64,000 nucleotides of DNA from an uncultured virus (IMG/VR IMGVR_UViG_3300048890_000135) (taxonomy: Duplodnaviria > Heunggongvirae > Uroviricota > Caudoviricetes), in IMG/VR virus record IMGVR_UViG_3300048890_000135. One strand, written 5' to 3'. Of the stretch, positions 3,589 to 53,875 are shown piece by piece. The translations under genes and the position numbers were made by a program. Position 1 is the stretch's first letter; each line of letters begins with the position of its first letter. The notes beneath the pieces were generated by a model that saw only the letters and a program-made list of their open reading frames with translations, made no database searches and was not told the origin of the DNA.

Positions 3589-3617
3589 TTGACACGCACG
3601 TATACGGCGTATACACT
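3589..3617 (+). promoter_or_regulatory. Promoter with GTATAC-N3-GTATAC operator (copy 2)
   Basis: TTGACA 3589-3594, 17 nt, TACACT 3612-3617; GTATAC at 3600 and 3609. Confidence 0.8.
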
Positions 3618-7756: not shown

Positions 7757-7921
7757 ATGGATCGTCTCACGAAACTGCTCTTCGCGGCAATTGGCTTTGC
7801 AGTCGTCCAAACCGTGACGACCGTGGCGTTTTTCCAGAATGCCGTTGGCACCAGCTCCGCGATCTTCTGCTGGCTTGTGGTGGTCGTTGTGGCCCTGCGT
7901 CGGCGTGCCACGAAAGCTTGA
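7757..7921 (+). CDS. Small two-TM membrane protein
   Basis: RBS GGAGG; two hydrophobic stretches and basic tail. Confidence 0.5.
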   Translation: MDRLTKLLFAAIGFAVVQTVTTVAFFQNAVGTSSAIFCWLVVVVVALRRRATKA

Positions 7922-7945
7922 CAGCCTGCGTATACGCGGTATACT
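7918..7945 (+). promoter_or_regulatory. Promoter with GTATAC-N3-GTATAC operator (copy 3)
   Basis: TTGACA 7918-7923, TATACT 7940-7945; GTATAC at 7930 and 7939; ATG 7 nt downstream. Confidence 0.75.
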
Positions 7946-42358: not shown

Positions 42359-42553
42359 ATGACGAACTCCAAGCCCACCCCAGCAAAGTCCATCGGTCAG
42401 GTTCCGCTCAATTTGGGCCCGTCTTCCTGGGGCGGCGGCCTCCCGCCGGCTTACGCTGGGCCCCCGAAATGTCCTCCCGGAATGAAGGTGGGCCCTCGCG
42501 GCCTTTGCCGTCCCACAACGACGACGCTCGGCAGCGGGCGGCGTTCCCGATAG
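42359..42553 (+). CDS. Small Pro/Gly-rich protein
   Basis: RBS AAGGAG; SIGQVPLNLG. Confidence 0.5.
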   Translation: MTNSKPTPAKSIGQVPLNLGPSSWGGGLPPAYAGPPKCPPGMKVGPRGLCRPTTTTLGSGRRSR

Positions 42554-42569
42554 GTTCGGAGGAAAGCCT

Positions 42570-43367
42570 ATGCGCCCGTTCTTGGGTCGGGTTCCTCTCA
42601 GAGTTCCAGGATCTCGGTCTTTGGGTCAAGTCGAATTCACGGATCCGTGGGGCGGCGTTCATCGCGTGACCGTGGAGCCGCCCCCTCCAGAGATTCCGCC
42701 TTTTGACCCAAGAAGAACCCCAGAAGAAATGGAGCGCAGGGCGCTCCACGCCTCGAAAATCAAAGGAAAAGAACAGGAATGCGAGATCCTTAAAGCGAAC
42801 ATGGAGGCGCACAAGAGCCATTACTTCGACAGAGAAGAATCTGGAGATACGGAATATCAGAATTACACCGATGCGGTGGACGCCTACAACGGGTGTCTCG
42901 ATAAGATCGCCGCTCTTGAAGGAGAAATGGACACTGCGCCCGTGGATTTCGGAACGGAGTCTGGCTACGAATGGCCTCCAGAAATTCCAAATCCATCGAC
43001 TCCGCTCGAAGAGCAATTGCAACATCAGCCCCCTCTGGATGTTCCTTCCGTCGACTGGAGGACCCCCAGCACTGCGCCGCACGAATTGAACGAGTGGCCC
43101 GAGGAGGTTCCGTATCCGACGGGCGAGCCAGTCCCTCCGCCTGAGCCGCCCGAGCTCATCGAAACTCCGCCACCGGTCGCCAGCGTTGACTGGAGAACTA
43201 CCGGTTGTCCGGCAGGCACCGCGAGGCTCGTCCGCGGCGGCATGTGTGTTTCGTCGGGTCTCGTATCGTCGGCTTTGACGACGCCGATGACGACGGCGAC
43301 CCCTTTCACGATGGGGCGGGCAATGCTCGGCCAGGTCCATCTCGTGCGTCGTCCTGGCGCCTTCTAG
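42570..43367 (+). CDS. Pro-rich acidic protein (LGQ-motif group)
   Basis: RBS GGAGG; RSLGQ near N-terminus, RAMLGQ near C-terminus; SVDWRT repeated. Confidence 0.6.
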   Translation: MRPFLGRVPLRVPGSRSLGQVEFTDPWGGVHRVTVEPPPPEIPPFDPRRTPEEMERRALHASKIKGKEQECEILKANMEAHKSHYFDREESGDTEYQNYTDAVDAYNGCLDKIAALEGEMDTAPVDFGTESGYEWPPEIPNPSTPLEEQLQHQPPLDVPSVDWRTPSTAPHELNEWPEEVPYPTGEPVPPPEPPELIETPPPVASVDWRTTGCPAGTARLVRGGMCVSSGLVSSALTTPMTTATPFTMGRAMLGQVHLVRRPGAF

Positions 43368-43385
43368 AATTCGATTTTTTTCCGC

Positions 43386-43414
43386 TTGACACCGAACCTT
43401 TCGGCGGCTACGTT
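43386..43414 (+). promoter_or_regulatory. Sigma70-type promoter of the tRNA-array leader
   Basis: TTGACA 43386-43391, 17 nt, TACGTT 43409-43414. Confidence 0.7.
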
Positions 43415-43455
43415 GTTCATGTAACAGGACCACCGAACAAGGAGACGGACCTTCC

Positions 43456-43617
43456 GTGAGATCACTACCCTGCGTCCGAGACCAAAGGCCAACGATGGAG
43501 ATCCTCCATCGGCAGGCTTGGTCTCTGTTCGTGGGTTCGTATTCCCCGGCGACGTGCAGCAAGCCCGCCGGGAATCGAACCATCGAACAGACGGGCGCGG
43601 GGGCGATGGTGATGTAA
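43456..43617 (+). CDS. 53-aa pan-codon leader peptide (MRSLPCVRDQRPTMEILHRQAWSLFVGSYSPATCSKPAGNRTIEQTGAGAMVM)
   Basis: SD AAGGAG 43439-43444, GTG start, TAA 43615-43617; codons 2-32 all different; all 20 amino acids. Confidence 0.7.
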   Translation: MRSLPCVRDQRPTMEILHRQAWSLFVGSYSPATCSKPAGNRTIEQTGAGAMVM

Positions 43618-43651
43618 CAAGAGCTCGAAAAAACTGAAACCCCCGCGCCCG
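43592..43651 (+). promoter_or_regulatory. Antiterminator helix of attenuator
   Basis: CGGGCGCGGGGG (43592-43603) is the exact reverse complement of CCCCCGCGCCCG (43640-43651), the terminator 5' arm. Confidence 0.8.
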
Positions 43652-43672
43652 AAAGGACGCGGGGGTTTTTTT
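43637..43672 (+). terminator. Intrinsic terminator (attenuator) upstream of tRNA array
   Basis: AAACCCCCGCG-c-CC-GAAA-GG-a-CGCGGGGG followed by T7. Confidence 0.85.
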
Positions 43673-43678
43673 GTTGTA

Positions 43679-43935
43679 CCCACCGACCTTGGAAGGTCGG
43701 TGGGCGGATACCAGGGACTCAGGACGCCATCGGCTCCGGCCGGGCCCCTGAGCCAGGAAGCCGCGGCGCGTTGGCGCGCGCCGCACTTGAAAATCGGGCT
43801 GGAACGACAAAGATCGGAAGGGGAGGCCCATCCGGGAAGGGTGGGCCTCCCCGACCTCAATGCCAGGCCGTCACACGCTCGGGAAGCGAGTATACGCGAG
43901 GGGGATGAAATCTTCAAGCGGTGACGCGCCTTTCG
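43679..43935 (+). ncRNA. Unassigned structured RNA between attenuator and first tRNA
   Basis: Hairpins 43679-43704 and 43820-43852 plus further stems; no convincing ORF. Confidence 0.4.
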
Positions 43936-43936
43936 T

Positions 43937-44010
43937 CCGCCTGTAGCTCAACAGCAGAGCGTCTGGTTTCCACCCAGATGATGCCGGTGCGACTCCGGTC
44001 AGGCGGTCCA
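43937..44010 (+). tRNA. tRNA-Gly(TCC)
   Basis: Cloverleaf, loop TTTCCAC, U73, CCA. Confidence 0.85.
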
Positions 44011-44013
44011 CAT

Positions 44014-44088
44014 GCGGGCGTAGCGTAGAAGCAACGCGTCTCCTTCCCAAGGAGAAGATCGCGGGTGCAAGTCCCGCTGCCCGCTCCA
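44014..44088 (+). tRNA. tRNA-Gly(CCC)
   Basis: Cloverleaf, loop TTCCCAA, CCA. Confidence 0.85.
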
Positions 44089-44089
44089 C

Positions 44090-44163
44090 ATGCCGGTGGT
44101 GTAGCAGCAGCATCGCTGTTTCCAAGTCAGCGGGTAGAGGTGCGACTCCTCTCCGGCATGCCA
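44090..44163 (+). tRNA. tRNA-Trp(CCA)
   Basis: Cloverleaf, loop TTCCAAG, G73, CCA. Confidence 0.75.
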
Positions 44164-44174
44164 AAATTGAAAAC

Positions 44175-44250
44175 GCCTCTGTAGGGGAGTGGAGTCCCCG
44201 CCTCCCTGTCACGGAGGAGACCGTGGGTTCGAATCCCATCAGGGGCGCCA
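44175..44250 (+). tRNA. tRNA-Asp(GTC)
   Basis: Cloverleaf, loop CTGTCAC, CCA. Confidence 0.9.
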
Positions 44251-44335
44251 AGCTTCGGGCGATGTAACGGGCTCCGCGCGATGAGCCTGCACCGACAAGT
44301 CGAACGCGCGCTCGCTGGTGCGTGTCGCCCTTTAC

Positions 44336-44411
44336 TCCCACGTCGTCTAACCGGTAGGACGCCACGTTCTGACCGTGGAGATTCCAGGTTCGAATCCTGG
44401 CGTGGGAACCA
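44336..44411 (+). tRNA. tRNA-Gln(CTG)
   Basis: Cloverleaf, loop TTCTGAC, CCA. Confidence 0.9.
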
Positions 44412-44415
44412 ATCT

Positions 44416-44739
44416 TCAGATCCCGAATCGGCTCTTGATGTCGGGCATGAGGCGTCGGTAGGGAGTCGTCCCGTCGATGCGGTAGAACTCCTTGCCGTCC
44501 CTGAAGAAGACGAGCGTCGGGATCGAGGTGACCTCGTGCCTCTCGGTGGCTTTTGGCGCTTCGTCGATGTCGGCTCCGACGACGAGCACCTGACCTTGGA
44601 GCTCGCCGGCGATCTTGGCGATCGTGGGTTTGGCGGCCTTGCAGCCCGGGCACCAGGGTGCCCAGAACTCAATGATCGCCAGCGGCGCCTTGAGCGCCTC
44701 GTCGAAGTTCTTGTCCGTGACCTGCAGCAGTTCGCTCAT
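44416..44739 (-). CDS. trxA: Thioredoxin
   Basis: FWAPWCPGCK active site, SIPTL; antisense inside tRNA array. Confidence 0.9.
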   Translation of the reverse strand: MSELLQVTDKNFDEALKAPLAIIEFWAPWCPGCKAAKPTIAKIAGELQGQVLVVGADIDEAPKATERHEVTSIPTLVFFRDGKEFYRIDGTTPYRRLMPDIKSRFGI

Positions 44740-44828
44740 AAGTTCCCCCTTGCCGGGGGATTCTAGCCTATTTTTCATTCTTTGTCACACCCCTCTCGAT
44801 CCAGACGCGATACCTGTGGAGGTGCTGC

Positions 44829-45014
44829 ATGGACGATCGGGAGAAGCGGATCCAGGCGCTCACCGAGTATGGGTGGACGATCCGGAGAGACGGCTGGAGG
44901 GCCGGGGAAACGATCATCGAAAGATACGAGCTCGAGATTCCAGAGTTCAGACGTTGGGCCTATGCGCTCGGGATCGTGCTTCGTGCGGAAGAATTACTTG
45001 CCGGTCTGGCGTAG
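44829..45014 (+). CDS. Small hypothetical protein
   Basis: RBS GGAGGT; last codons overlap tRNA-Phe. Confidence 0.55.
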   Translation: MDDREKRIQALTEYGWTIRRDGWRAGETIIERYELEIPEFRRWAYALGIVLRAEELLAGLA

Positions 45015-45074
45015 ATAGTAGCGCGCCTGTCTGAAGAGCAGGAGGTTCCGGGGCGGTACCGGAGGCCGGCACCA
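45000..45074 (+). tRNA. tRNA-Phe(GAA)
   Basis: Cloverleaf, loop CTGAAGA, atypical T-loop, CCA. Confidence 0.8.
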
Positions 45075-45148
45075 GGGTCCATCGTCTAGCAGGAGGACGC
45101 GAGCGTGGCACGCTCGAGGCGGGAGTGCGATTCTCCCTGGATCCACCA
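45075..45148 (+). tRNA. tRNA-Ala(GGC)
   Basis: G3:U70, loop GTGGCAC, CCA. Confidence 0.85.
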
Positions 45149-45153
45149 AATCT

Positions 45154-45228
45154 TGCAGAGGAGAGGCATCCGGTGACCTCACCAGGCTCATAACCTGGGG
45201 CTTGCAGGTTCAAATCCTGCCTCTGCTA
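45154..45228 (+). tRNA. tRNA-Met(CAT), initiator-like
   Basis: Loop CTCATAA; 1:72 mismatch; no encoded CCA. Confidence 0.75.
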
Positions 45229-45229
45229 C

Positions 45230-45304
45230 GGGCCCATAGCTCAATCAGGAGAGCGGCCGGTTCGCAATCGGCAGACGGCGGGGCGGAACCGCCTGGGTCC
45301 ACCA
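45230..45304 (+). tRNA. tRNA-Ala(CGC)
   Basis: G3:U70, loop TTCGCAA, CCA. Confidence 0.85.
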
Positions 45305-45312
45305 AAATCCTT

Positions 45313-45388
45313 GGGTCCGTAGCTCAATCAGGAGAGCGCCTGCCTTGCAAGCAGGAGGTAGCGAGAGCAAAGCTCGCCGGATCCACCA
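45313..45388 (+). tRNA. tRNA-Ala(TGC)
   Basis: G3:U70, loop CTTGCAA, CCA. Confidence 0.85.
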
Positions 45389-45396
45389 AATTTCCT

Positions 45397-45489
45397 GGGC
45401 GCTGGTCCGCTCGGCGGTCTGTAAAACCGTTGTCCCAAAACAAGAGCGGCGGTTAAGGACGAGAGGTTCAACTCCTCCAGCTCCCACCA
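45397..45489 (+). tRNA. tRNA-Tyr(GTA), atypical (no normal D-arm, long variable region)
   Basis: Loop CTGTAAA, T-arm GGTTCAACTCC, ACCA end. Confidence 0.65.
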
Positions 45490-45490
45490 T

Positions 45491-45569
45491 TGCCCGGCAC
45501 TCTGTGTTGGTATCGGAGCTCCGCCTTTGAAGCGGGTGGACGAAGGTTCGATTCCTTCCCGGGCAACCA
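45491..45569 (+). tRNA. tRNA-Gln(TTG)
   Basis: Loop CTTTGAA, CCA. Confidence 0.8.
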
Positions 45570-45579
45570 GAAAATTTTT

Positions 45580-45653
45580 CGGGGTGTAGCACAAAGGTAG
45601 TGCGCCTCTTTGCCAAGGAGGAGAAGCCGGATCATTACCGGTCACCCCGTCCA
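45580..45653 (+). tRNA. tRNA-Gly(GCC)
   Basis: Loop TTGCCAA, U73, CCA. Confidence 0.8.
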
Positions 45654-45663
45654 AGATTTTCAT

Positions 45664-45738
45664 CGGCGTGTAGCTCAGTAGCTAGAGCATCCGGTTGATA
45701 ACCGGAAGAAGATGGGGCGGAACCATCCACGCCGACCA
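45664..45738 (+). tRNA. tRNA-Ile(GAT)
   Basis: Loop TTGATAA, CCA. Confidence 0.85.
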
Positions 45739-45746
45739 AATCTTAT

Positions 45747-45820
45747 GGGGCCAAAGTGTTGCGGCGGCACGGTCGGCTGTGACCCGGCCAGGGTGGGTTC
45801 GACTCCCACTGGTCCCTCCA
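45747..45820 (+). tRNA. tRNA-His(GTG)
   Basis: Loop CTGTGAC, CCA; lacks canonical G-1:C73. Confidence 0.8.
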
Positions 45821-45842
45821 AGATTCGATGTACAATGGGACG

Positions 45843-46052
45843 ATGCCTCATGTCGATCCGTCCTGGAGAGTTGAGAGCTCGAAATTTAATTGGCTCTCCA
45901 GGTTGCTTTGCGTCTTCGGGATCCATCACTGGGTCTGGAGCTCCACGCTCAAGGCGGCGATCGCCTGCGCCGTGTGCCCCAAGAAGACCAAGCGTTGGGA
46001 CGAATATCGTCAGCGCATGAAGGACGCCATGCACCGAAGTCTTGATCCATAA
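45843..46052 (+). CDS. Small Zn-binding-like hypothetical protein
   Basis: LLCVFGIHHW...CAVC; TACAAT 6 nt upstream. Confidence 0.55.
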   Translation: MPHVDPSWRVESSKFNWLSRLLCVFGIHHWVWSSTLKAAIACAVCPKKTKRWDEYRQRMKDAMHRSLDP

Positions 46053-46129
46053 CGGGCTCAGGGGTAGATAGCGACCCGCCTGCTTGGGGTGCAGGAGTAA
46101 GCGCGGTGCAAGTCCGCGGAGCCCGACCA
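46053..46129 (+). tRNA. tRNA-Pro(GGG)
   Basis: C1:G72, loop TTGGGGT, CCA. Confidence 0.85.
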
Positions 46130-46135
46130 GATCTT

Positions 46136-46438
46136 CGAAGCGTTCGGTCTGTCGGTGAAAGTCGACGCGATCACGGCGCGAAACGACCCACGTAAGTCTC
46201 CATGTCCTCAAGCCGCCTCGGAGGACGAAGGAGTGGCAGGGCCTTCGGGTCCGCTATTCGACCACATGCCTTTTGGAGATGATCATGGCCGGGCCGGGGA
46301 AGTGAAGAGCTTCCAAGATTTGTGTCAGCCCTGCCGCGAAAGCGAGAGACGCCATAAAGGGAGCGCGGGCTCTGAAGTACCGGCTAAAGCGTCCAGCAGG
46401 CGAGTGTGGGGGCTAAACCGAGGTCAGCGAACGCTTCG
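46136..46438 (+). ncRNA. raiA-motif RNA
   Basis: 11-bp closing helix CGAAGCGTTCG/CGAACGCTTCG; ordered blocks TGAAAGTCGA, AAACGACCCACGTAAG, CATGG, CCTGCCGC..GCGAGAG, TCCAGCAGGCGAGTGTGGGG, AGGTCA match the raiA consensus as I recall it. Confidence 0.8.
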
Positions 46439-46441
46439 TTC

Positions 46442-46515
46442 GGGCGCGTATTTCAAAAGCAGAATGCATCCGTGACATGGATGAGATGCTGGTGCAATTC
46501 CAGCCGTGCCCACCA
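46442..46515 (+). tRNA. tRNA-Val(GAC)
   Basis: Loop GTGACAT, CCA. Confidence 0.8.
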
Positions 46516-46533
46516 ATCTTGTAAGATGCTTCC

Positions 46534-46731
46534 ATGAGTCGCAAGGAAGAGATCCTGAGACGTGCTGCGGAAATGCAGCGCCAGGAGAAGACCTCCAGGA
46601 AACCTCCCGATAGGCCCTACGACGGAAGCGGGATGGTGTCGCGGATGCCGCTCGGATGCTGGCTCTGGATCCTCGGTCTCGCAGCGCTCGTCCTTTACGC
46701 CTTCAGCAGATTCATCGGCGGTGTACACTGA
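46534..46731 (+). CDS. Small membrane protein
   Basis: C-terminal TM helix; TAAGAT 6 nt upstream. Confidence 0.55.
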   Translation: MSRKEEILRRAAEMQRQEKTSRKPPDRPYDGSGMVSRMPLGCWLWILGLAALVLYAFSRFIGGVH

Positions 46732-46843
46732 AATCGACCGGACAACTCAGACCCCTAACTCTGGTGGCGGGGCTCGGGCTGGCAAGGATCGAGGGTGTGC
46801 GCCTTCGCGAGGGGCTGACCCGGGCCCCGCTCCCGTTGTTCAC

Positions 46844-46919
46844 GCCGGCGTAGTTTAGCAGCTCTGAATGCGGCATTGGTAATGCCGAGGTGCGGGGGCA
46901 GCACCCGCCGCCGGCTCCA
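46844..46919 (+). tRNA. tRNA-Thr(GGT)
   Basis: Loop TTGGTAA, CCA. Confidence 0.8.
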
Positions 46920-46924
46920 GAAAT

Positions 46925-46951
46925 AAAAAAGCCCGGGGAACAACCCCGGGC
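46925..46951 (-). terminator. Minus-strand intrinsic terminator-like hairpin
   Basis: AAAAAA-GCCCGGGG-AACAA-CCCCGGGC on + strand. Confidence 0.5.
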
Positions 46952-46985
46952 CCTGGGCGGGTCTAGTGATCGGATTGTATCACAC

Positions 46986-47060
46986 GCTGGCGTAGCTCAA
47001 CAGCAGAGCCCCCGCTTTGTAAGCGGACAGATGCCGGTGCAAGACCGGTCGCCAGCTCCA
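46986..47060 (+). tRNA. tRNA-Thr(TGT)
   Basis: Loop TTTGTAA, CCA. Confidence 0.85.
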
Positions 47061-47143
47061 GAAAAAACAAAGGCCAGGAGAATGGAGATCTCTATTCCCC
47101 TGGCCCAAAGGCGGTATGTATAGGAGAAATTCTACCAAGATCC

Positions 47144-47218
47144 GCCAGCCTGGTCTAATGAGAATGACGTCGGTTTCATAAGCCGAAAGTGACGGGGCAG
47201 ATCCGTCGGCTGGTACCA
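47144..47218 (+). tRNA. tRNA-CAT (elongator Met or Ile2)
   Basis: Loop TTCATAA, CCA. Confidence 0.75.
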
Positions 47219-47219
47219 C

Positions 47220-47313
47220 GGAGAGTTAAGCGAGTGGGAACTCGCCGCCCGCTCGAAACGGGATGGTGCCCGGCACAACTGGGCATGGGGATCAAGACCT
47301 CAGCTCTCCGCCA
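47220..47313 (+). tRNA. tRNA-Ser(CGA)
   Basis: Loop CTCGAAA, long variable arm, G73, CCA. Confidence 0.8.
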
Positions 47314-47393
47314 AAAAAAATTCGAGCCCAGGCGAAGTGCCTGGGCTCGGGAGAGGGAAACGCCTTTCGAAGGCTGTGAAAATTCTACCACAC

Positions 47394-47483
47394 GGAGACG
47401 AAGGCAGTCAGCGTGCCGCACCGGCTTGAACCCGGTTGCCCGGTTCGTCCGGGTCGCGCGTGCAACTCGCGCCGTCTCCTCCA
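47394..47483 (+). tRNA. tRNA-Ser(TGA)
   Basis: Loop CTTGAAC, long variable arm, CCA. Confidence 0.8.
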
Positions 47484-47559
47484 AAAAACTGATCAGAGAT
47501 GGTGGGCGAGCTTCTCTGTGATTTCGCCCTCAGGCTGGATCCATCAAGTCCGGCTTCAT

Positions 47560-47647
47560 GGAGGCGTTGGGCACTGGCAGGCCCAGCTCGTTGGAAGCGA
47601 GCCGGCTTTAACCGGCCGTGCAGGTTCGACTCCTGTCGCCTCCGCCA
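47560..47647 (+). tRNA. tRNA-Ser(GGA)
   Basis: Loop TTGGAAG, long variable arm, CCA. Confidence 0.85.
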
Positions 47648-47648
47648 T

Positions 47649-47739
47649 GGAAGGTAGCTCGATATCGGTTAGCGAGACGTGTTTGCTAAACACGGGCCCC
47701 TAAGACGGGCGGCGAGTTCGACTCTCGCACCTTCCGCCA
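47649..47739 (+). tRNA. tRNA-Ser(GCT)
   Basis: Loop TTGCTAA, long variable arm, CCA. Confidence 0.85.
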
Positions 47740-47816
47740 ATATTGAAGGTCACCAGTCGTTCGATCGAGCCAGGATAGCGTGCTCAGCACGACGGCTTCC
47801 GGTCGGCGATCTCCGA

Positions 47817-47892
47817 TGCGGGGTAGTGATACGGTCATCACGCGGGGCTCATAACTCCGAGACGGCGGGTTCAACTCCCCCTCCCGCTACCA
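47817..47892 (+). tRNA. tRNA-fMet-like (CAT)
   Basis: 1:72 mismatch, G-rich anticodon stem, loop CTCATAA, CCA. Confidence 0.8.
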
Positions 47893-47895
47893 CTT

Positions 47896-47970
47896 GCACC
47901 GTTGGCGAAATGGGAACGCGGCCGCCTGCAAAGCGGTCATGACCGGGCTCGATCCCCGGACGGTGCTCCA
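47896..47970 (+). tRNA. tRNA-Cys(GCA)
   Basis: Loop CTGCAAA, U73, CCA. Confidence 0.85.
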
Positions 47971-48000
47971 AGCTTCTTTTCCGAGCGCGCCCGGAGCGCT

Positions 48001-48294
48001 ATGATGGAGTTCATGGAGACCAAGTTCGCGGCCAATCCATTCCAGGGAATCTCGTTTGGCTTGGACCACGTCTTCATGTATCGCCAGGAGGACGCGCAGC
48101 GCTGGATCGTCTATAAGAGGAAGGACGGCCTGATCGTTGCTTCCTTCGACGGGACCGAAGCGTTTCCGGGATCCGCGCAGAATCTTGACGAGTCTCAGCG
48201 GGCATTCTGGGCCCGGGAGCTTGCCTATCAGGAATGCATCCGGAGAAATTCTCATGCGGCCCCTGATCTAGCGGCGATCGACACCACGCCATAG
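48001..48294 (+). CDS. Hypothetical protein inside tRNA array
   Basis: RBS GGAG; 97-aa frame between tRNAs. Confidence 0.55.
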   Translation: MMEFMETKFAANPFQGISFGLDHVFMYRQEDAQRWIVYKRKDGLIVASFDGTEAFPGSAQNLDESQRAFWARELAYQECIRRNSHAAPDLAAIDTTP

Positions 48295-48310
48295 CAGAAA
48301 CTTCACCAAG

Positions 48311-48386
48311 GCCGGTGTAGCTCATTCAGCAGAGCGCCGAGTTCGTAACTCGGAGGCGGCGAGGGCAGAGCTCGCCACCGGCTCCA
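48311..48386 (+). tRNA. tRNA-Thr(CGT)
   Basis: Loop TTCGTAA, CCA. Confidence 0.85.
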
Positions 48387-48387
48387 T

Positions 48388-48473
48388 ACCACGGTCGGGT
48401 AATCGGTAGCCCACCTCACTGTTAATGAGGCGCTCGAAAGAGTATGTAGGTTCGAATCCTACCCGTGGTGCCA
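48388..48473 (+). tRNA. tRNA-Asn(GTT) with extended variable arm
   Basis: Loop CTGTTAA, G73, CCA; extra hairpin GCTC-GAAA-GAGT. Confidence 0.85.
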
Positions 48474-48478
48474 ATCTT

Positions 48479-48553
48479 GCCCCTGTCGCGTAACAGATAG
48501 CGCGCCGAGCTTCTACCTCGGAAGTGCGGGTGCAATTCCTGCCGGGGGTACCA
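48479..48553 (+). tRNA. tRNA-Arg(TCT)
   Basis: Loop CTTCTAC, CCA. Confidence 0.85.
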
Positions 48554-48554
48554 C

Positions 48555-48628
48555 GGCCTCATCGACTATGAGTAGGTCGGCACCCTCTCAAGGTGCAGGA
48601 GCGAGTGCGAATCTCGCTGAGGCTACCA
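48555..48628 (+). tRNA. tRNA-Glu(CTC)
   Basis: Loop CTCTCAA, CCA. Confidence 0.85.
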
Positions 48629-48633
48629 ATCTT

Positions 48634-48707
48634 GGGCCGCTCGTCTATGAGTAGGATGCTGGTTCTTCAAACCGGCGGACAGGGTGCGAATCCCTGGCGG
48701 CCTGCCA
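48634..48707 (+). tRNA. tRNA-Glu(TTC)
   Basis: Loop TCTTCAA (C33), CCA. Confidence 0.8.
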
Positions 48708-48710
48708 GAT

Positions 48711-49190
48711 TTAGCTGAAGATCGCGTAGAGCGCGGCCGCGATCCCGACGGCGCCGAGAGCATATGGCGCAGCTTCTTCGATCGTGGTCTTCTTCTCTCC
48801 GGCATCGAATTCGAAAGCCGCTTCCCGAGATTCTGGAGGGTAGGGCGAGTAGTAGATCGGGGGAATGTACGGAAAGTAGTAGATCGGAGGACGAGGCCGA
48901 GGAGGGCAGCTTGCGGGCTCCTTCTTGTAGGTGATCGTTCCATCCGGCTGCTTGCATTCGAAGAGCTGGAGGCACGATCCGTTCTCTCTGAAGGGAACTC
49001 CGAGGCGCTTGCAGTCTGCTGGGGGAGGAGGAGGGGGAGGAGGCAGAGGCTCCGGCGCGGGTTCAGGTTCCGGCATCGGCGCGGGTTCCGGGGCAGGCAC
49101 ATCGGGGAGCGGTCCATTCTGGCCCATGCGGGTGCGCGTGAACGGGGATCCCTGAAACGGGAGCTGCCTCAAGAAGGTCTTCTGGAACAT
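48711..49190 (-). CDS. Pro-rich protein with C-terminal TM anchor (MGQ-motif group)
   Basis: RTRMGQNGP, poly-Pro, hydrophobic C-terminus; own TATAAT and AAGGAG. Confidence 0.7.
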   Translation of the reverse strand: MFQKTFLRQLPFQGSPFTRTRMGQNGPLPDVPAPEPAPMPEPEPAPEPLPPPPPPPPADCKRLGVPFRENGSCLQLFECKQPDGTITYKKEPASCPPRPRPPIYYFPYIPPIYYSPYPPESREAAFEFDAGEKKTTIEEAAPYALGAVGIAAALYAIFS

Positions 49191-49264
49191 TCCGCTCTCC
49201 TTTCGAGCTTCAGGAAGAATTATAGCTACAACCCAGATCCCAAAACACAGAGATCTACTTTCGT

Positions 49265-49460
49265 TTCCACAAGAGGGTGGCCTGCCGCGCGGGAATCGAA
49301 TTCCAACGATCTATCGGCCGCGCTCGAAAGGGCGCAGATCGCGAGGTAGATCGTCGAGGCAGAATAAGCGCCCCCGGGACGGCAGTGTACTAGTCCACGC
49401 TGCCGGAGCAAGGGTGACGAACCATCGTCAGATGGCGAACCAGGCCACCCCCTTGTGGAA
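49265..49460 (+). ncRNA. Unassigned ~196-nt multibranch RNA
   Basis: 19/20-bp closing helix 49265-49284/49441-49460 with internal stems. Confidence 0.55.
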
Positions 49461-49489
49461 CCGATCATGGCCCGCTGGCGGGCTTCCAA

Positions 49490-49563
49490 GCCTCCGTAGA
49501 TCAACAGCAGATGACCCGGCTTTTACCCGGGGGATGGGGGTGCAAATCCCTCCGGAGGCACCA
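49490..49563 (+). tRNA. tRNA-Lys(TTT)
   Basis: Loop CTTTTAC, CCA. Confidence 0.8.
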
Positions 49564-49668
49564 GAAATTTCGAAGTCGATCCCTCGAGGGACTCCGGGCG
49601 ATCCTGCAGGAAAACATATCTGCAGGATGCGCTTAACACGTCCGGAGCCCCGCGGAAGATCGACCAAT

Positions 49669-49742
49669 GGGAGCGTAGTTCAACAGCAGAAGACCCGGCT
49701 CTTACCCGGGGGATGAGGGTGCAACTCCCTCCGCTCCCACCA
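49669..49742 (+). tRNA. tRNA-Lys(CTT)
   Basis: Loop CTCTTAC, CCA. Confidence 0.85.
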
Positions 49743-49750
49743 AGCTTCAA

Positions 49751-49827
49751 GCCGCCGTGGCGCAACCAGCAGACGCGCCCAGCTCAAACCTGGGATCTTG
49801 CGGGTGCAAGTCCCGCCGGCGGCACCA
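49751..49827 (+). tRNA. tRNA-Leu(CAA), short variable loop
   Basis: Loop CTCAAAC, A73, CCA. Confidence 0.85.
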
Positions 49828-49831
49828 TCCT

Positions 49832-49907
49832 GGGCTCGTGGCGGAACAGCATACGCGCTCGTCTTAGGAACGAGATTTTGTGGGTGCAACTCCCACCGGG
49901 CCCACCA
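49832..49907 (+). tRNA. tRNA-Leu(TAG), short variable loop
   Basis: Loop CTTAGGA, CCA. Confidence 0.85.
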
Positions 49908-49914
49908 AACATTC

Positions 49915-49991
49915 GCGGCTGTGATGCAACTGGCAGACATCTTCGGCTCAGAACCGGAGTCCTGGAGGTTCGAATCCTCTCGGCCGCACCA
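49915..49991 (+). tRNA. tRNA-Leu(CAG), short variable loop
   Basis: Loop CTCAGAA, CCA. Confidence 0.85.
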
Positions 49992-49992
49992 G

Positions 49993-50066
49993 GCCCCGCT
50001 ATTTCAACAGCAGAATGCCTGTCTCACATACAGGTGATGGGGGTGCAACTCCCTCGCGGGGTACCA
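49993..50066 (+). tRNA. tRNA-Val(CAC)
   Basis: Loop CTCACAT, CCA. Confidence 0.8.
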
Positions 50067-50197
50067 AAATTAACGAGGCCGCAAAGGTCTGGCGACCTCA
50101 GCGGCCTCAGGTGGGGGAGAACTGGGACCCTCTCTCAAGGGCTGCTTTGTTCAAAAAGGGATCCAAAATCGTTCAAAAAGTTACGATGAAAATATTC

Positions 50198-50274
50198 GCG
50201 GCGATGATGCAACTGGTAGACATCTCCGGTTGAGAATCGGGGTCCTGGAGGTTCGAATCCTCTTCGCCGCACCA
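50198..50274 (+). tRNA. tRNA-Leu(GAG), short variable loop
   Basis: Loop TTGAGAA, CCA. Confidence 0.85.
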
Positions 50275-50282
50275 AAATTCTT

Positions 50283-50358
50283 CGGGCTGTTGGGTAATTG
50301 GTAGCCCGCCTGTTTCGGATACAGGAGTGTCCCGGTTCAAGTCCGGGCAGCCCGACCA
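50283..50358 (+). tRNA. tRNA-Pro(CGG)
   Basis: Loop TTCGGAT, CCA. Confidence 0.9.
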
Positions 50359-50367
50359 ATCTCTCGA

Positions 50368-50440
50368 GGACCGGTAGCTCAGCGGCAGGAGCGGCCGCCT
50401 CATAAGCGGACGGGAGCGGGATCGACACCCGCACGGTCCA
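50368..50440 (+). tRNA. tRNA-CAT (elongator Met or Ile2)
   Basis: Loop CTCATAA; followed by TCA rather than CCA. Confidence 0.75.
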
Positions 50441-50444
50441 TCAG

Positions 50445-50522
50445 CAGGGTGTAGCTCAGACAGTGATGAGCGCGTGCCTTGGAAGCACGAGGTCGCCGGT
50501 GCGAGTCCGGCCACCCTGACCA
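50445..50522 (+). tRNA. tRNA-Pro(TGG)
   Basis: Loop CTTGGAA, CCA. Confidence 0.85.
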
Positions 50523-50531
50523 AGTTTCCAA

Positions 50532-50605
50532 GCCCCCGTGGGGTAGTAGACGCCCGGCGATCTCCTACATCGCAAGGCCCGGTGCGACTCCGGGCGGGGG
50601 CTCCA
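50532..50605 (+). tRNA. tRNA-Arg(CCT)
   Basis: Loop CTCCTAC, CCA. Confidence 0.85.
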
Positions 50606-50613
50606 AGATTCAT

Positions 50614-50688
50614 CTCCCGGTGGGGTAACGGATTGCCCGCCACTCTGCGAAGGTGGAGGTGAGGGTTCGATTCCCTCCTGGGAGACCA
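50614..50688 (+). tRNA. tRNA-Arg(GCG)
   Basis: Loop CTGCGAA, CCA. Confidence 0.85.
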
Positions 50689-50691
50689 AAC

Positions 50692-50765
50692 GCCCCCATG
50701 GGGTAGCAGATGCCCGTCGCGCTTCGAACGCGAAAGTCCAGGTGCGACTCCTGGTGGGGGTTCCA
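50692..50765 (+). tRNA. tRNA-Arg(TCG)
   Basis: Loop CTTCGAA, CCA. Confidence 0.85.
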
Positions 50766-50784
50766 AGATTGTATACTGGGTGCG

Positions 50785-51060
50785 GTGACTCAAGTCGTCA
50801 ACATCCGGTACAGCCCCTGCGACGTCTACATCGGACGCGGATCCCCGTTCGGGAATCCGTACATGCTTGGCCCGGATGGTGATCGCGAAGAGGTGATTCG
50901 GCTCTACCGGGCCGATTTCAACTTCAAGATCAAAAACGATCACGCCTTCCGCGCCAATGTGGAAGCGCTTCGTGGGAAAAAGCTCGGATGCCACTGCCAT
51001 CCGATGTCATGCCACGGGGACGTGATCGTCGAATACCTCGAGCAGGCCCCGGTGGTGTAA
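50785..51060 (+). CDS. DUF4326-family protein
   Basis: DVYIGRGSPFGNPY, LRGKKLGCHCHPMSCHGDV. Confidence 0.8.
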   Translation: MTQVVNIRYSPCDVYIGRGSPFGNPYMLGPDGDREEVIRLYRADFNFKIKNDHAFRANVEALRGKKLGCHCHPMSCHGDVIVEYLEQAPVV

Positions 51061-51117
51061 CAGATCGCACGGCGGTCTCCGAAGCCGCAAGTCCAGGCGC
51101 GACTCCTGGCCGGGGTA
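51046..51117 (+). tRNA. tRNA-Arg(CCG)
   Basis: Loop CTCCGAA; no encoded CCA; 5' end overlaps DUF4326 stop. Confidence 0.8.
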
Positions 51118-51176
51118 CTAGAATCGAGATAGAATCGTTCCAGCCCGATTTTCTCAGGTCTGCAAGGAGGTGGCCC

Positions 51177-51788
51177 GTGGAGGCCTTGAAGGCGCTCGAC
51201 CGCACGGTGCTGGTGCTCAACCGGCGCTGGGATCCTATCCAGACGACGTCCGTCAAGGACGCGATCGGCCTGGTCGCCAAGGGATCTGCTTTCGTCATCG
51301 ACCCGGCCACGTTCGACCGGCATGACCTGATTTCCTGGGGAGAAGTCTCCAAGGCGATGAAGGTCGTCGGCGACGGCCTGATCCGCTCCCAGCATCTGGC
51401 GATCGTCCCGCCCGAGGTGGTTGTCCTCACGGAGTACGAAGGACGTGGCGAGCGGTCGGTGGTCTTCTCGCGGAAGAACATCTTCAAGCGCGACCGGTAC
51501 ACCTGCCAGTACTGCGGGAAGCAGCCGGGTCCGGAGGAGCTCACGATCGACCATGTGATCCCTCGGAGCCGCGGCGGGACGTCGACATGGGAGAACTGTC
51601 TGCTCGCGTGCGTTGAGTGCAACAAGCGCAAGGCCGACAAGACGCTCGAGCAGGCTGGGATGGCTCCTCGCAAGACGCCGAAGAAGCCAAGCTGGAAGAC
51701 GCTCGCCCAGGTCCATCCCAAGGCCCGGCGCGAGAGCTGGGAGCAGTTCCTCGGCCGTGCATACTGGGAGGTCGAGCTCGAACCCTGA
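51177..51788 (+). CDS. HNH endonuclease
   Basis: VLVLN, RKNIFKRDRYTCQYCG, TIDHVIPRSRGG, WENCLLACVECNKRK; RBS AAGGAGGT. Confidence 0.9.
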   Translation: MEALKALDRTVLVLNRRWDPIQTTSVKDAIGLVAKGSAFVIDPATFDRHDLISWGEVSKAMKVVGDGLIRSQHLAIVPPEVVVLTEYEGRGERSVVFSRKNIFKRDRYTCQYCGKQPGPEELTIDHVIPRSRGGTSTWENCLLACVECNKRKADKTLEQAGMAPRKTPKKPSWKTLAQVHPKARRESWEQFLGRAYWEVELEP

Positions 51789-51805
51789 TCGTCAGGTGCG
51801 GATCG

Positions 51806-51844
51806 AAACAGCCCGGATGGAAACGTCCGGGCTGTTTTTCTTTC
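51806..51844 (+). terminator. Intrinsic terminator closing the tRNA/HNH unit
   Basis: AAACAGCCCGGATG-GAAA-CGTCCGGGCTGTTT followed by T-rich tail. Confidence 0.8.
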
Positions 51845-51894
51845 CGTTGCTGATCGGTTAAGGATAGGATATGGGGGTAAGGAGGAAACAATTC

Positions 51895-52218
51895 ATGTAC
51901 GCTCCAACTTTCAGGCCCGTCGCGTTTCAGCCCCCAGCGTATCGGCCGGCTCGTCTCGCACAGGCCGTGCCCATCCTTGCCGATGAACCGGTGATACAGC
52001 CTCCGCTGGTCCCTGAAGGCATCATCTGGACGAGCCTTGCGGCGGCCGCCTCGTATGCGTCGATCTACACCGCCACGCATACGGATAAGGGCTTCCTCAA
52101 GGTTGCCGGATGGGCGGGCGGGGTCGCGGCGGGACTGGCGGCCCTGATCGGGCTGACGGGCATCCTCGCCCCGACCGCGGCGCGGACTTTCCCGCTCCGC
52201 TGGTACTTCGTTCGATAG
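51895..52218 (+). CDS. Membrane protein (LAQ-motif group)
   Basis: RBS AAGGAGG; PARLAQ; two hydrophobic segments. Confidence 0.65.
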   Translation: MYAPTFRPVAFQPPAYRPARLAQAVPILADEPVIQPPLVPEGIIWTSLAAAASYASIYTATHTDKGFLKVAGWAGGVAAGLAALIGLTGILAPTAARTFPLRWYFVR

Positions 52219-52276
52219 AACAGAAGAACATTAAACCGCTTGGACGAAAACGTCCGAGCGTCGATCTTTCTAAACC

Positions 52277-52626
52277 GGGGGCGAACTAGTTTTCGACTGG
52301 AGTGCGGATCGGACAAGCCGCGCGCCGCAGTCGGTCTCGAGGCTGCGTAAAAACGAGACCAAAACCCTAACTGGCAAGCGCCAGCTGTCCCTCGCGGCCT
52401 GACCGCGACGTCGCGCCGGCTTACGCCGATCGGCGGGATGCGACGTTAAAAATCGGCTGGGAAGCCCGAAGAGTCCGGGAAAGGGTTTCCAAGAAACAAT
52501 CCGGAATATGGTCGACGGAAGATCGGCGGTGATCGTCCCGAGACCGAGAACAAATCGCCGCCTACGCGCGTAGACGCCTTCGTGAATCTCTCCAGGACGC
52601 GGGTGCGACTCCCGCCGCCTCCACCA
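52277..52626 (+). ncRNA. ssrA: tmRNA, tag (A)GKRQLSLAA*
   Basis: GGGGGCG/CGCCTCC-A-CCA acceptor with G3:U70; PK1 CGCAG/CTGCG and GGTCTCG/CGAGACC; tag frame 52373-52402 ending LAA-TGA. Confidence 0.92.
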
Positions 52627-52730
52627 AAAATCTCACGCCAGTCCTATTCTCTTCGAATCTAGCTCTCGAGCTCAGGTTCTCGTAAAATGAACATGCGACC
52701 GGGGGCCTTCTGGTTAAGGAGGCCCAAGAA

Positions 52731-52958
52731 GTGCGGGACTTGCGATACGACACTGCCCTTACGGCGGGCACCTGGTATCTCTGGAAGACCGGGAAGAAGA
52801 GGGTTTTCTTCTCCTGTCCTGATTGTTCAGGGATCGTCTTGGTCGAACTTGACAACATCAACGAGGACGGAACCCTGATGGCGCTGTTTTCGTGCAAGCG
52901 CGCAAATTGCAGTTTCAGCGACTTGATTCGGTTGTCCGGATGGGCGGTGGTGATCTAG
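52731..52958 (+). CDS. Small Zn-ribbon-like protein
   Basis: RBS AAGGAGG; CPDC. Confidence 0.55.
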   Translation: MRDLRYDTALTAGTWYLWKTGKKRVFFSCPDCSGIVLVELDNINEDGTLMALFSCKRANCSFSDLIRLSGWAVVI

Positions 52959-53233
52959 TGGCTCCTGCGGCTAGAAAACTCTCCTTCGTTGCCCGTCTGA
53001 AGTTTCCGACCTACGAAACGAAGCCCTTCATCGCCGAACTCACGATGGGGCAGGCCGAAGAGATCGCCAAGATGCTCGAGAAGTACAAAAAGGCCGGAGC
53101 GATCCAGGATTACTACCTCGGAAAGCCGGATAGAATGGAGCAGCTCCACGCTCTAATTCTTTCCGGAGACATCCTGAAGATAGAGCTTCGGGACCTGATC
53201 GAGCTTGAGAAGAAGCTTTCTCGTGACGTGTAA
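52958..53233 (+). CDS. Hypothetical protein
   Basis: TAGTG coupling. Confidence 0.55.
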   Translation: MAPAARKLSFVARLKFPTYETKPFIAELTMGQAEEIAKMLEKYKKAGAIQDYYLGKPDRMEQLHALILSGDILKIELRDLIELEKKLSRDV

Positions 53234-53290
53234 GCATGGAGACGGACGCGTCTTCATGCTATTCTTTTGGGAACGATTGAGAGGTCATTC

Positions 53291-53875
53291 ATGAGTGGCG
53301 CCCCAGCACGATCCGGGCGGATCAGCTGCATGAGCGGTGAGTCGCAGTGCGAGATCATCGCGATGAAGCTCAAGGAAGAGGAAAAAACCAACCCAGAACG
53401 CCGAAAGGTGCTTGAGCGCGTGATCGTCGCCACCGGTCCGCGCATACAGCGTTACCACTGGGGAAGCATCCAGGTCTTCCCAAGCCGGCGTCAGTCGGCG
53501 ATCTACCTCAAGAAGGACCGCTTCCGGGTCCGTGTCGAAGGCTGGGAGGGAGATCTCGTCAAGCCTGAAAAGGGCTGGGATTTCTGCGATCCCGACGACT
53601 GCAACGGCCAGATCGTGATCGCCACCTGGAGCAACCGGCATCCTTCCGAGACGGTCTGGGGCGCGCCGCCAGAAGAGTCGGGTCACGAGAACACCTATTG
53701 GGTCGAGTACGTGGGCCCGAGGACCGGACCCATCAACCGACGCTCAGGCCCCTTCGGATGTACGGTGGATCCAGCCGATCACGCCATGAGCGACGGCGGC
53801 TTCACCCAGCCCGGCTGGGATGGTGGCTACGCGATCCTCGACTCGAGCGACAACGTCGTCGAACTTAACGCGTAA
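53291..53875 (+). CDS. Hypothetical protein
   Basis: RBS GAGAGG; start uncertain. Confidence 0.6.
   Translation: MSGAPARSGRISCMSGESQCEIIAMKLKEEEKTNPERRKVLERVIVATGPRIQRYHWGSIQVFPSRRQSAIYLKKDRFRVRVEGWEGDLVKPEKGWDFCDPDDCNGQIVIATWSNRHPSETVWGAPPEESGHENTYWVEYVGPRTGPINRRSGPFGCTVDPADHAMSDGGFTQPGWDGGYAILDSSDNVVELNA

Follow-up and report, generated by a model that had tools for sequence, protein, structure and literature searches.

An attenuator-like leader at the head of a 45-gene tRNA array in an uncultured soil phage

Leader-peptide attenuators of the trp, his, leu, thr, ilv and pheA type place the transcription of amino-acid operons under the control of a ribosome, and the transfer RNA (tRNA) arrays of phages are usually viewed as constitutive codon-usage helpers or as spares against tRNA-cleaving defences. 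To our knowledge, how the expression of phage tRNA arrays is controlled is largely unknown. Here we describe a leader that stands ahead of 45 tRNA genes in a 64,000-nucleotide stretch of DNA from an uncultured virus of the Caudoviricetes (IMG/VR record IMGVR_UViG_3300048890_000135; the whole stretch is hereafter called the window). An attenuator-like switch at the head of this array is real and conserved: four RNA segments, E1 to E4, enter mutually exclusive pairings, either E1:E2 together with E3:E4, an intrinsic terminator, or E2:E3, an antiterminator. The switch surrounds a 53-codon open reading frame (ORF), and we tentatively propose that a ribosome on this ORF reads it. A full-text literature search found no such control of tRNA genes.

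The leader shares with the attenuators of amino-acid operons a promoter-proximal short ORF with a Shine-Dalgarno sequence (SD), four segments that pair as 1:2 plus 3:4 or as 2:3, a segment 1 within the ORF and a stop codon beside segment 2; as in leader-peptide attenuators, an intrinsic terminator lies between the ORF and the genes that would be controlled, the first tRNA gene beginning at 43937. It departs from the amino-acid-operon systems in several respects: it has no run of one amino acid's codons, its ORF is long and places two large hairpins between segments 1 and 2, its stop codon follows segment 2 where theirs precedes it, and it would govern tRNAs instead of biosynthetic enzymes, through a translation step that is here putative. 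Riboswitch and T-box platforms offer another likeness, since there too the closing helix of a multi-hairpin domain lends its 3' strand to an antiterminator that competes with a terminator; unlike these, the leader has no Rfam match, no conserved unpaired pocket nucleotides and no detected T-box sequence. A many-input translation sensor built from an upstream ORF (uORF) and an antitermination switch is already known in principle from mycobacterial whiB7, whose uORF attenuator, according to PMC10274678, is activated by inhibiting amino-acid biosynthetic genes, tRNAs or tRNA synthetases. The whiB7 uORF is alanine-enriched and controls a transcription factor in a cellular genome (PMC10274678), whereas the phage leader has no amino-acid enrichment and has a phage tRNA array as its target.

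A conserved terminator/antiterminator switch

The leader has a defined anatomy that is both statistically significant and conserved (Table 1). The promoter, SD, 53-codon ORF, terminator and 45-gene array with 42 anticodons that the first-pass annotation of this DNA had listed are all present in the sequence, and the two long hairpins that it placed within the ORF, here P1 and P2, fold as it described. The 12-bp antiterminator that it had seen in codons 46-50 can be pinned to a single strand at 43592-43603, which is invariant in ten sequences; a 12-nt match to the 5' arm of the terminator arose in only 1 of 5000 dinucleotide shuffles. That earlier reading lacked a fourth segment, E1, which lies in codons 5-8 and is the partner of the antiterminator strand in the alternative pairing, where the E1:E2 helix closes the junction of P1 and P2. 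With E1 included, the layout in our folding models is that of a classical 1:2 / 2:3 / 3:4 attenuator. Folds of growing transcripts contain E1:E2 up to 43635, E2:E3 at 43652, and E1:E2 with the terminator at 43667-43672. Folded alone, the antiterminator hairpin reaches -29.3 kcal/mol and the terminator hairpin -24.4 kcal/mol, and the region 43420-43680 as a whole folds with z = -7.18, none of 200 shuffles being as stable. Folding was discarded as a means of choosing the strand, as both strands fold well (z of -7.2 versus -6.1 for the leader and -5.7 versus -5.4 for the spacer beyond it).

A metagenome scan that used the protein encoded directly upstream of the leader as the query yielded 12 loci, nine of which were aligned with the window to give ten sequences. 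The rows outside the alignment were L032, with the same blast result as L031; L023, which is 100% identical and stops at 43625; and L034, which is without the leader. L025-L028 are closely related strains with an overall identity of 95-97%, and L029, L030, L031 and L033 are more distant; over the leader, the window and its aligned relatives are 90-99% identical. Because its identities to L031 exceed those of the upstream gene, the thioredoxin gene and the other array gaps (Table 1), the leader is conserved in the manner of a functional RNA, its least conserved piece being the linker between stop codon and terminator. All four segments are invariant across the ten aligned sequences, and variable sites occupy 17 of 82 unpaired but 12 of 170 paired positions (Fisher p = 0.0026). 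Six positions around the SD, between 43427 and 43448, differ among relatives, and the apical stem of P1 is weaker in the L029 group. A fourth haplotype, P0002, found as a protein record only, carries H18R; if this is read as a single-step change from CAT to CGT, it would re-form a pair that the L029 group has lost by its ATG-to-ACG change.

P2 has a further feature of its own. One of its arms reads like a tRNA T-arm and the other like a T-arm complement, with 15-nt stretches that match T-arms in two of the array's tRNAs at 93%, and P2 may have originated from a piece of a tRNA. We considered and rejected a degenerate tRNA on either strand: the T-arm-like arms make no T-stem, and neither ARAGORN nor Rfam gave a match there. 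The complementarity of 43461-43481 to the start of a tRNA-Met, at 18 of 21 positions, is at about chance level and was likewise set aside.

Table 1. Features of the leader and its surroundings in the window, with identities between the window and L031.
Feature	Coordinates	Strand	Description, basis and conservation	Identity to L031
Upstream gene	42570-43367			66%
Promoter and 5' untranslated region				91%
Sigma-70-type promoter	43386-43414	+	-35 TTGACA at 43386-43391, 17 nt, -10 TACGTT at 43409-43414; from sequence; invariant in 10/10 aligned sequences	
Shine-Dalgarno AAGGAG	43439-43444	+	11 nt ahead of GTG; AGGAG core the same in every relative	
Leader ORF	43456-43617	+	GTG to TAA, 53 codons plus TAA; open in 9/9 aligned relatives (53-54 codons)	90%
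E1, anti-antiterminator strand	43468-43478	+	codons 5-8; 11 bp with E2 (43592-43602), 2 of them G-U; from folds of growing transcripts; invariant	
Hairpin P1	43479-43524	+	from folding; lower stem preserved, with C-G replaced by U-G and G-U by G-C	
Hairpin P2	43525-43590	+	from folding; stems invariant, both changes seen fall in the loop	
E2	43592-43603	+	inside codons 46-50; alternative partners E1, or E3 over 12 perfect bp (antiterminator)	
Variable linker (antiterminator loop)	43604-43639	+	contains stop codon and A-run; stops in all three + frames	
Stop-to-terminator linker, 19 nt	43618-43636		least conserved leader piece	53%
Terminator	43637-43668	+	hairpin, then seven T	97%
E3, terminator 5' arm	43640-43651	+	from folding; invariant	
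E4, terminator 3' arm	43655-43672	+	arm at 43655-43665, then seven T; from sequence and folding	
Structured spacer, terminator to first tRNA	43673-43936	+	four conserved hairpins; fold z-score -5.7	93%
19-nt perfect inverted repeat, left arm	43789-43807	+	partner at 51135-51153, 17 nt past the last tRNA; left arm invariant in relatives	
tRNA array	43937-51118	+	45 genes, 42 anticodons, interspersed with small genes and a raiA RNA; ARAGORN, Rfam	
First four tRNAs				98.7%
Thioredoxin gene	44416-44778	-	in a gap of the array	80%
Other array gaps				71-86%

Reading of the switch

Our preference, held tentatively and with a confidence that stops a little short of an even balance, is for a transcription attenuator that lies in the 5' leader of the tRNA-array transcript and has a ribosome as its most probable reader. 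Transcription would begin from the promoter at 43386. If E1:E2 closed P1 and P2 and the terminator E3:E4 formed, the product would be a terminated leader of roughly 250 nt; if the E2:E3 antiterminator formed instead, the polymerase would cross the structured spacer and go on to transcribe the 45 tRNA genes. Most likely, the reader would be a ribosome on the 53-codon ORF. A ribosome over E1, either initiating or moving through codons 1-12, where rare codons abound, would leave E2 free to take E3 and the array would be transcribed, and one that had passed E1, or that lay over E2 (codon 42 to the stop), would allow the terminator to form. Since seven rare codons in the early part of the ORF are read by array tRNAs, such a switch would feed back negatively on tRNA supply. 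Translation of the leader, the direction of its control and this feedback are what we infer from the locus.

Transcription of the array from the leader would also fit the distribution of promoters and repeats. The pattern TTGACA-N16-18-TANNNT occurs four times in the window, always on the + strand, against an expectation of 0.22, and the site at 43386 is the sole one near the array. Because the 19-nt inverted repeat of Table 1 brackets the whole array, it suggests one long precursor whose transcription begins upstream of 43789; inverted matches of 16 nt average 0.05 per simulated region, and one of 19 nt is not expected by chance. The repeat, set around a 7.3-kb array, could be a long-range processing stem, as in ribosomal RNA operons, or a mark of cassette ends.

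Judged from frame-specific signals, ribosome sensing of the leader is plausible. Relatives retain both the SD and the GTG, the GC content at codon positions 1, 2 and 3 is 0.57, 0.57 and 0.74, and codons 13-53 have a codon adaptation index (CAI) of 0.70, where the median of the phage's genes is 0.71 and 1-3.7% of non-coding controls reach 0.70. The CAI of codons 2-12 is 0.325, lower than in 99.6% of in-frame gene windows, which marks a cluster of rare codons; these belong to several amino acids (AGA, TCA, CTA, CGA, CAA, AGG and CCA), and each of the seven has a reader among the array tRNAs, with no run of a single amino acid anywhere in the ORF. We folded the leader with a 27-nt ribosome footprint and with the terminator or the antiterminator state forced. 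The antiterminator is ahead when the ribosome's P-site holds codons 1-5 or 9-12, and marginally at codons 29, 31, 40 and 41; at all other positions the terminator leads. The rare early codons thus coincide with ribosome positions at which this folding favours the antiterminator, and the footprint model fits control through occupancy of E1, the site of the rare codons. From codon 42 on, the ribosome covers E2, so that the antiterminator becomes impossible and only the terminator can form in the model, which bears out the earlier proposal that a ribosome near the end of the ORF blocks the antiterminator. Long ORFs on the - strand over the leader were rejected as candidates for their low GC at third codon positions (GC3) and junk-like composition.

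Several observations weigh against a ribosome-read leader. Across 43368-43940, every one of the six frames stays open for 50-166 codons, the + frame stops falling in the AT-richer linker, and an open, conserved frame therefore carries little weight; the ORF frame is kept in all nine relatives, even where the L029 group has a 3-nt insertion, and other frames there are open too. The gap of 11 nt between SD and GTG compares with mostly 4-8 nt in this phage's genes (gaps of 10-12 nt occur in 2 of 20 genes with an SD core), and a small hairpin takes in the first two bases of the GTG. Substitutions in the ORF amount to about three synonymous and seven to eight non-synonymous changes, with no third-position excess and no coding pattern. 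In the DNA of the relatives, none of 83 base pairs has changed on both sides. When the ribosome has reached the stop codon, just 4-7 of the 12 nt of E2 lie under it, and at each ribosome position the two forced states lie at most 2.1 kcal/mol apart. As the state energies are near-equal at every position, the footprint model leaves the outcome undecided and the decision must be kinetic. The + strand of 43661-43940 contains no promoter-like site of the form TTGNNN-N16-18-TANNNT, which speaks for read-through from the leader, but this is a sigma-70-like pattern that phage-specific promoters may escape, and a phage-specific promoter in the spacer would serve the array without the leader.

Part of this evidence would sit comfortably with a switch that works independently of the ribosome, an explanation we rate as rather unlikely. 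The sensor would then be the three-way junction of P1 and P2 closed by E1:E2, acting as an OFF riboswitch or a protein-binding leader, or the hairpins would act on RNA polymerase, and the ORF would be incidental. The platform does look riboswitch-like, with the 3' strand of its closing helix common to the antiterminator and a terminator following, and selection is seen on the structure and not on the peptide; with every frame open, the ORF needs no special explanation, and its SD gap is sub-optimal. It is also plausible that an untranslated array of 7.3 kb would have to be guarded against premature termination. Such a switch would, however, belong to no known Rfam family: a search of 42500-53500 at E values up to 1, T-box included, returned only tRNA, tmRNA and raiA, together with chance-level matches outside the leader. 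Its junctions are nearly devoid of conserved unpaired nucleotides and its loops are variable, unlike a small-molecule pocket, and the frame-specific signals in GC3, CAI and codon diversity would be left unexplained. A second possibility, which we consider clearly unlikely, is a stand-alone unit, a small RNA or a small-protein gene, whose bidirectional terminator insulates the upstream operon from antisense transcription, with the array promoter, maybe phage-specific, in the spacer. The terminator hairpin scores on the - strand as a 14-pair terminator, which makes it bidirectional and the better terminator in that direction, and the upstream A-run is kept in both linker variants. The thioredoxin gene on the - strand is oriented towards the hairpin, has a promoter-like site at 44788-44760 and is separated from the hairpin by no other - strand terminator, and a further - strand promoter-like site lies at 43917-43889. 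An insulator would leave unexplained both the perfect 12-bp E2:E3 complement and the E1:E2 pairing, and it would need an array promoter where no sigma-70-like one was found on the + strand of 43661-43940. Its small-protein version is made unlikely by the peptide itself, which differs at about 10 of 53 residues among haplotypes and matches no family in PHROGs. A functional small protein was also rejected as a candidate in its own right: the peptide varies freely, PHROGs gives no match, and a search of 5.8 billion proteins gave only two short clusters.

The remaining rival is the design that the first-pass annotation had proposed, a purpose-built pan-codon leader that offers one codon each for almost all array tRNAs so that any stall, for example under anticodon-nuclease attack, opens the array. 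Its counts stand on recounting: codons 2-32 are 31 distinct codons, and none of the window's six frames has a longer run of this kind; codons 2-29 call for 28 different anticodons; and by codon 44 the ORF has sampled all 20 amino acids and 36 of the array's 42 anticodons, with TTA and GTA unused. Under a local null of stop-free random 52-codon ORFs with local composition, a run of at least 31 has P = 2.5e-4, close to the earlier hand estimate of about 1e-4, and all 20 amino acids appear with P = 0.4%. At least 36 anticodons are reached within those 43 codons in 0 of 20000 local-null trials (mean 25.9, standard deviation 2.1) and in 3 of 552 simulated 64-kb windows, figures for which the diversity measure and the window length were picked after the data had been seen. 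The other frames of the leader stretch give 28-30 anticodons, where the window average is about 23-25. All 20 amino acids are kept in the ten aligned sequences, and P0002, which loses the sole His at residue 18, has gained one at residue 45. It is also conceivable on kinetic grounds that a lagging ribosome has yet to cover E2 as E3 emerges. Against all this, a run of at least 31 turns up in 32% of 60 simulated 64-kb windows, and the run of 31 is found only in the window and L024: it falls to 25 in L025-L028 and to 24 in L029, L030, L031 and L033, broken by the adjacent duplicates CAG CAG in the former and ACG ACG in the L029 group. The run is thus lost in eight of nine relatives, and the codon non-redundancy is not conserved.

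A control stretch within the array is instructive here. At 49554-49688, where a hairpin spacer separates the last part of one tRNA-Lys from the first part of the following one and no start codon occurs in frame ahead of 49713, one frame samples 35 of the 42 anticodons and the others 24-28. Because a stretch without a start codon reaches such a count, the homogeneous null is too narrow for structured DNA of this sort, and frame-specific codon diversity can arise here without translation. The proposed mechanism fares no better in the folds: where read-through had been expected from a stall at almost any codon, the states are near-equal throughout once E1 is included, the antiterminator is ahead at few codons, and for stalls in the middle of the ORF the terminator is preferred at most codons, by 0.9-1.7 kcal/mol. 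The attenuator-like leader before the tRNA array, with its antiterminator/terminator pair, is therefore the part of the original proposal that we retain, and the one-of-each-codon design, with runs of 24-25 in eight of nine relatives, is the part that we do not. A pan-codon design of the ORF is not supported, and we judge it very unlikely; a broader version, in which the ORF is an amino-acid-complete, codon-diverse test message of a convergent class that raises transcription of the tRNA set whenever any tRNA limits, for instance through anticodon-nuclease cleavage, strikes us as similarly improbable. We take the high codon diversity to be incidental and not the working principle of the attenuator.

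The array, its phage and its relatives

The window belongs to a phage with a GC content of 60% that encodes a terminase, a helicase and two genes resembling phosphoadenosine phosphosulfate (PAPS) reductase. Of its tRNA genes, ARAGORN called 38 at default settings and three more at a relaxed threshold, and four were found by Rfam only; the anticodon of one of these four came from relaxed ARAGORN and those of the other three were read by eye. Neither program found a Leu-TAA or Val-TAC tRNA in the 45-gene array. A raiA RNA (RF03072) lies inside the array at 46138-46436, scoring 104.2 bits against a gathering score of 101.3 and showing 97% identity to the L031 lineage. Array gaps also hold four small + strand ORFs (44829-45014, 45828-46052, 46656-46853 and 47902-48294), apart from the thioredoxin gene on the opposite strand; because all five align without gaps to the L031 group, at 65-82% amino-acid identity, they are probably real genes. 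On the 3' side of the array, beyond it and an HNH endonuclease gene, the phage encodes its own transfer-messenger RNA (tmRNA) at 52277-52626 (122.8 bits; tag peptide GKRQLSLAA). Between terminator and first tRNA, the spacer hairpins are near-perfect, and one loop that reads TCCG in the window is TTCG in relatives.

The gene directly upstream of the leader has a hypervariable middle, at about 42685-43090, even among strains that are otherwise 95-97% identical; its protein is 51-60% identical in relatives, and a family search gave no match. The other three TTGACA promoters of the window, at 1984-2012, 3589-3617 and 7918-7945, contain paired CGTATACG-like palindromes between -35 and -10, and these three look like operator-bearing early promoters.

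Sequence words from 43350-44350 were found, besides the possible source run, in 13 further DNA runs from 11 studies labelled as soil, rhizosphere or root metagenomes, and in RNA-labelled runs only a small share of the sampled words was present. Contigs from four sequencing runs yielded no additional leader haplotype and no transcript ends. A comparison of 43000-44400 with a phage collection gave tRNA matches only; in IMG/VR, the upstream protein and the thioredoxin had no relative and three leader or tRNA patterns had no exact match, and a 34-nt invariant stretch was without an exact match in a genome collection. The closest cultured relative by helicase is Tunturiibacter phage Tunturi_3, at 28% identity, which has three tRNA matches and no array. 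Among the 22 relatives found through a PAPS reductase-like gene (L001-L022), none has the leader; nine of them were scanned for tRNAs near that gene and had none, and a search of whole records found a single tRNA in one of five.

A terminator/antiterminator switch heading a 45-tRNA array would make the control of such an array testable by reporter and in vitro transcription assays. The locus offers a clean four-segment example at the head of a phage tRNA array, in a GC-rich soil phage and with a 264-nt structured spacer between switch and genes. If the ribosome is the sensor, decoding speed itself would regulate tRNA supply, a logic known for amino-acid operons and whiB7.

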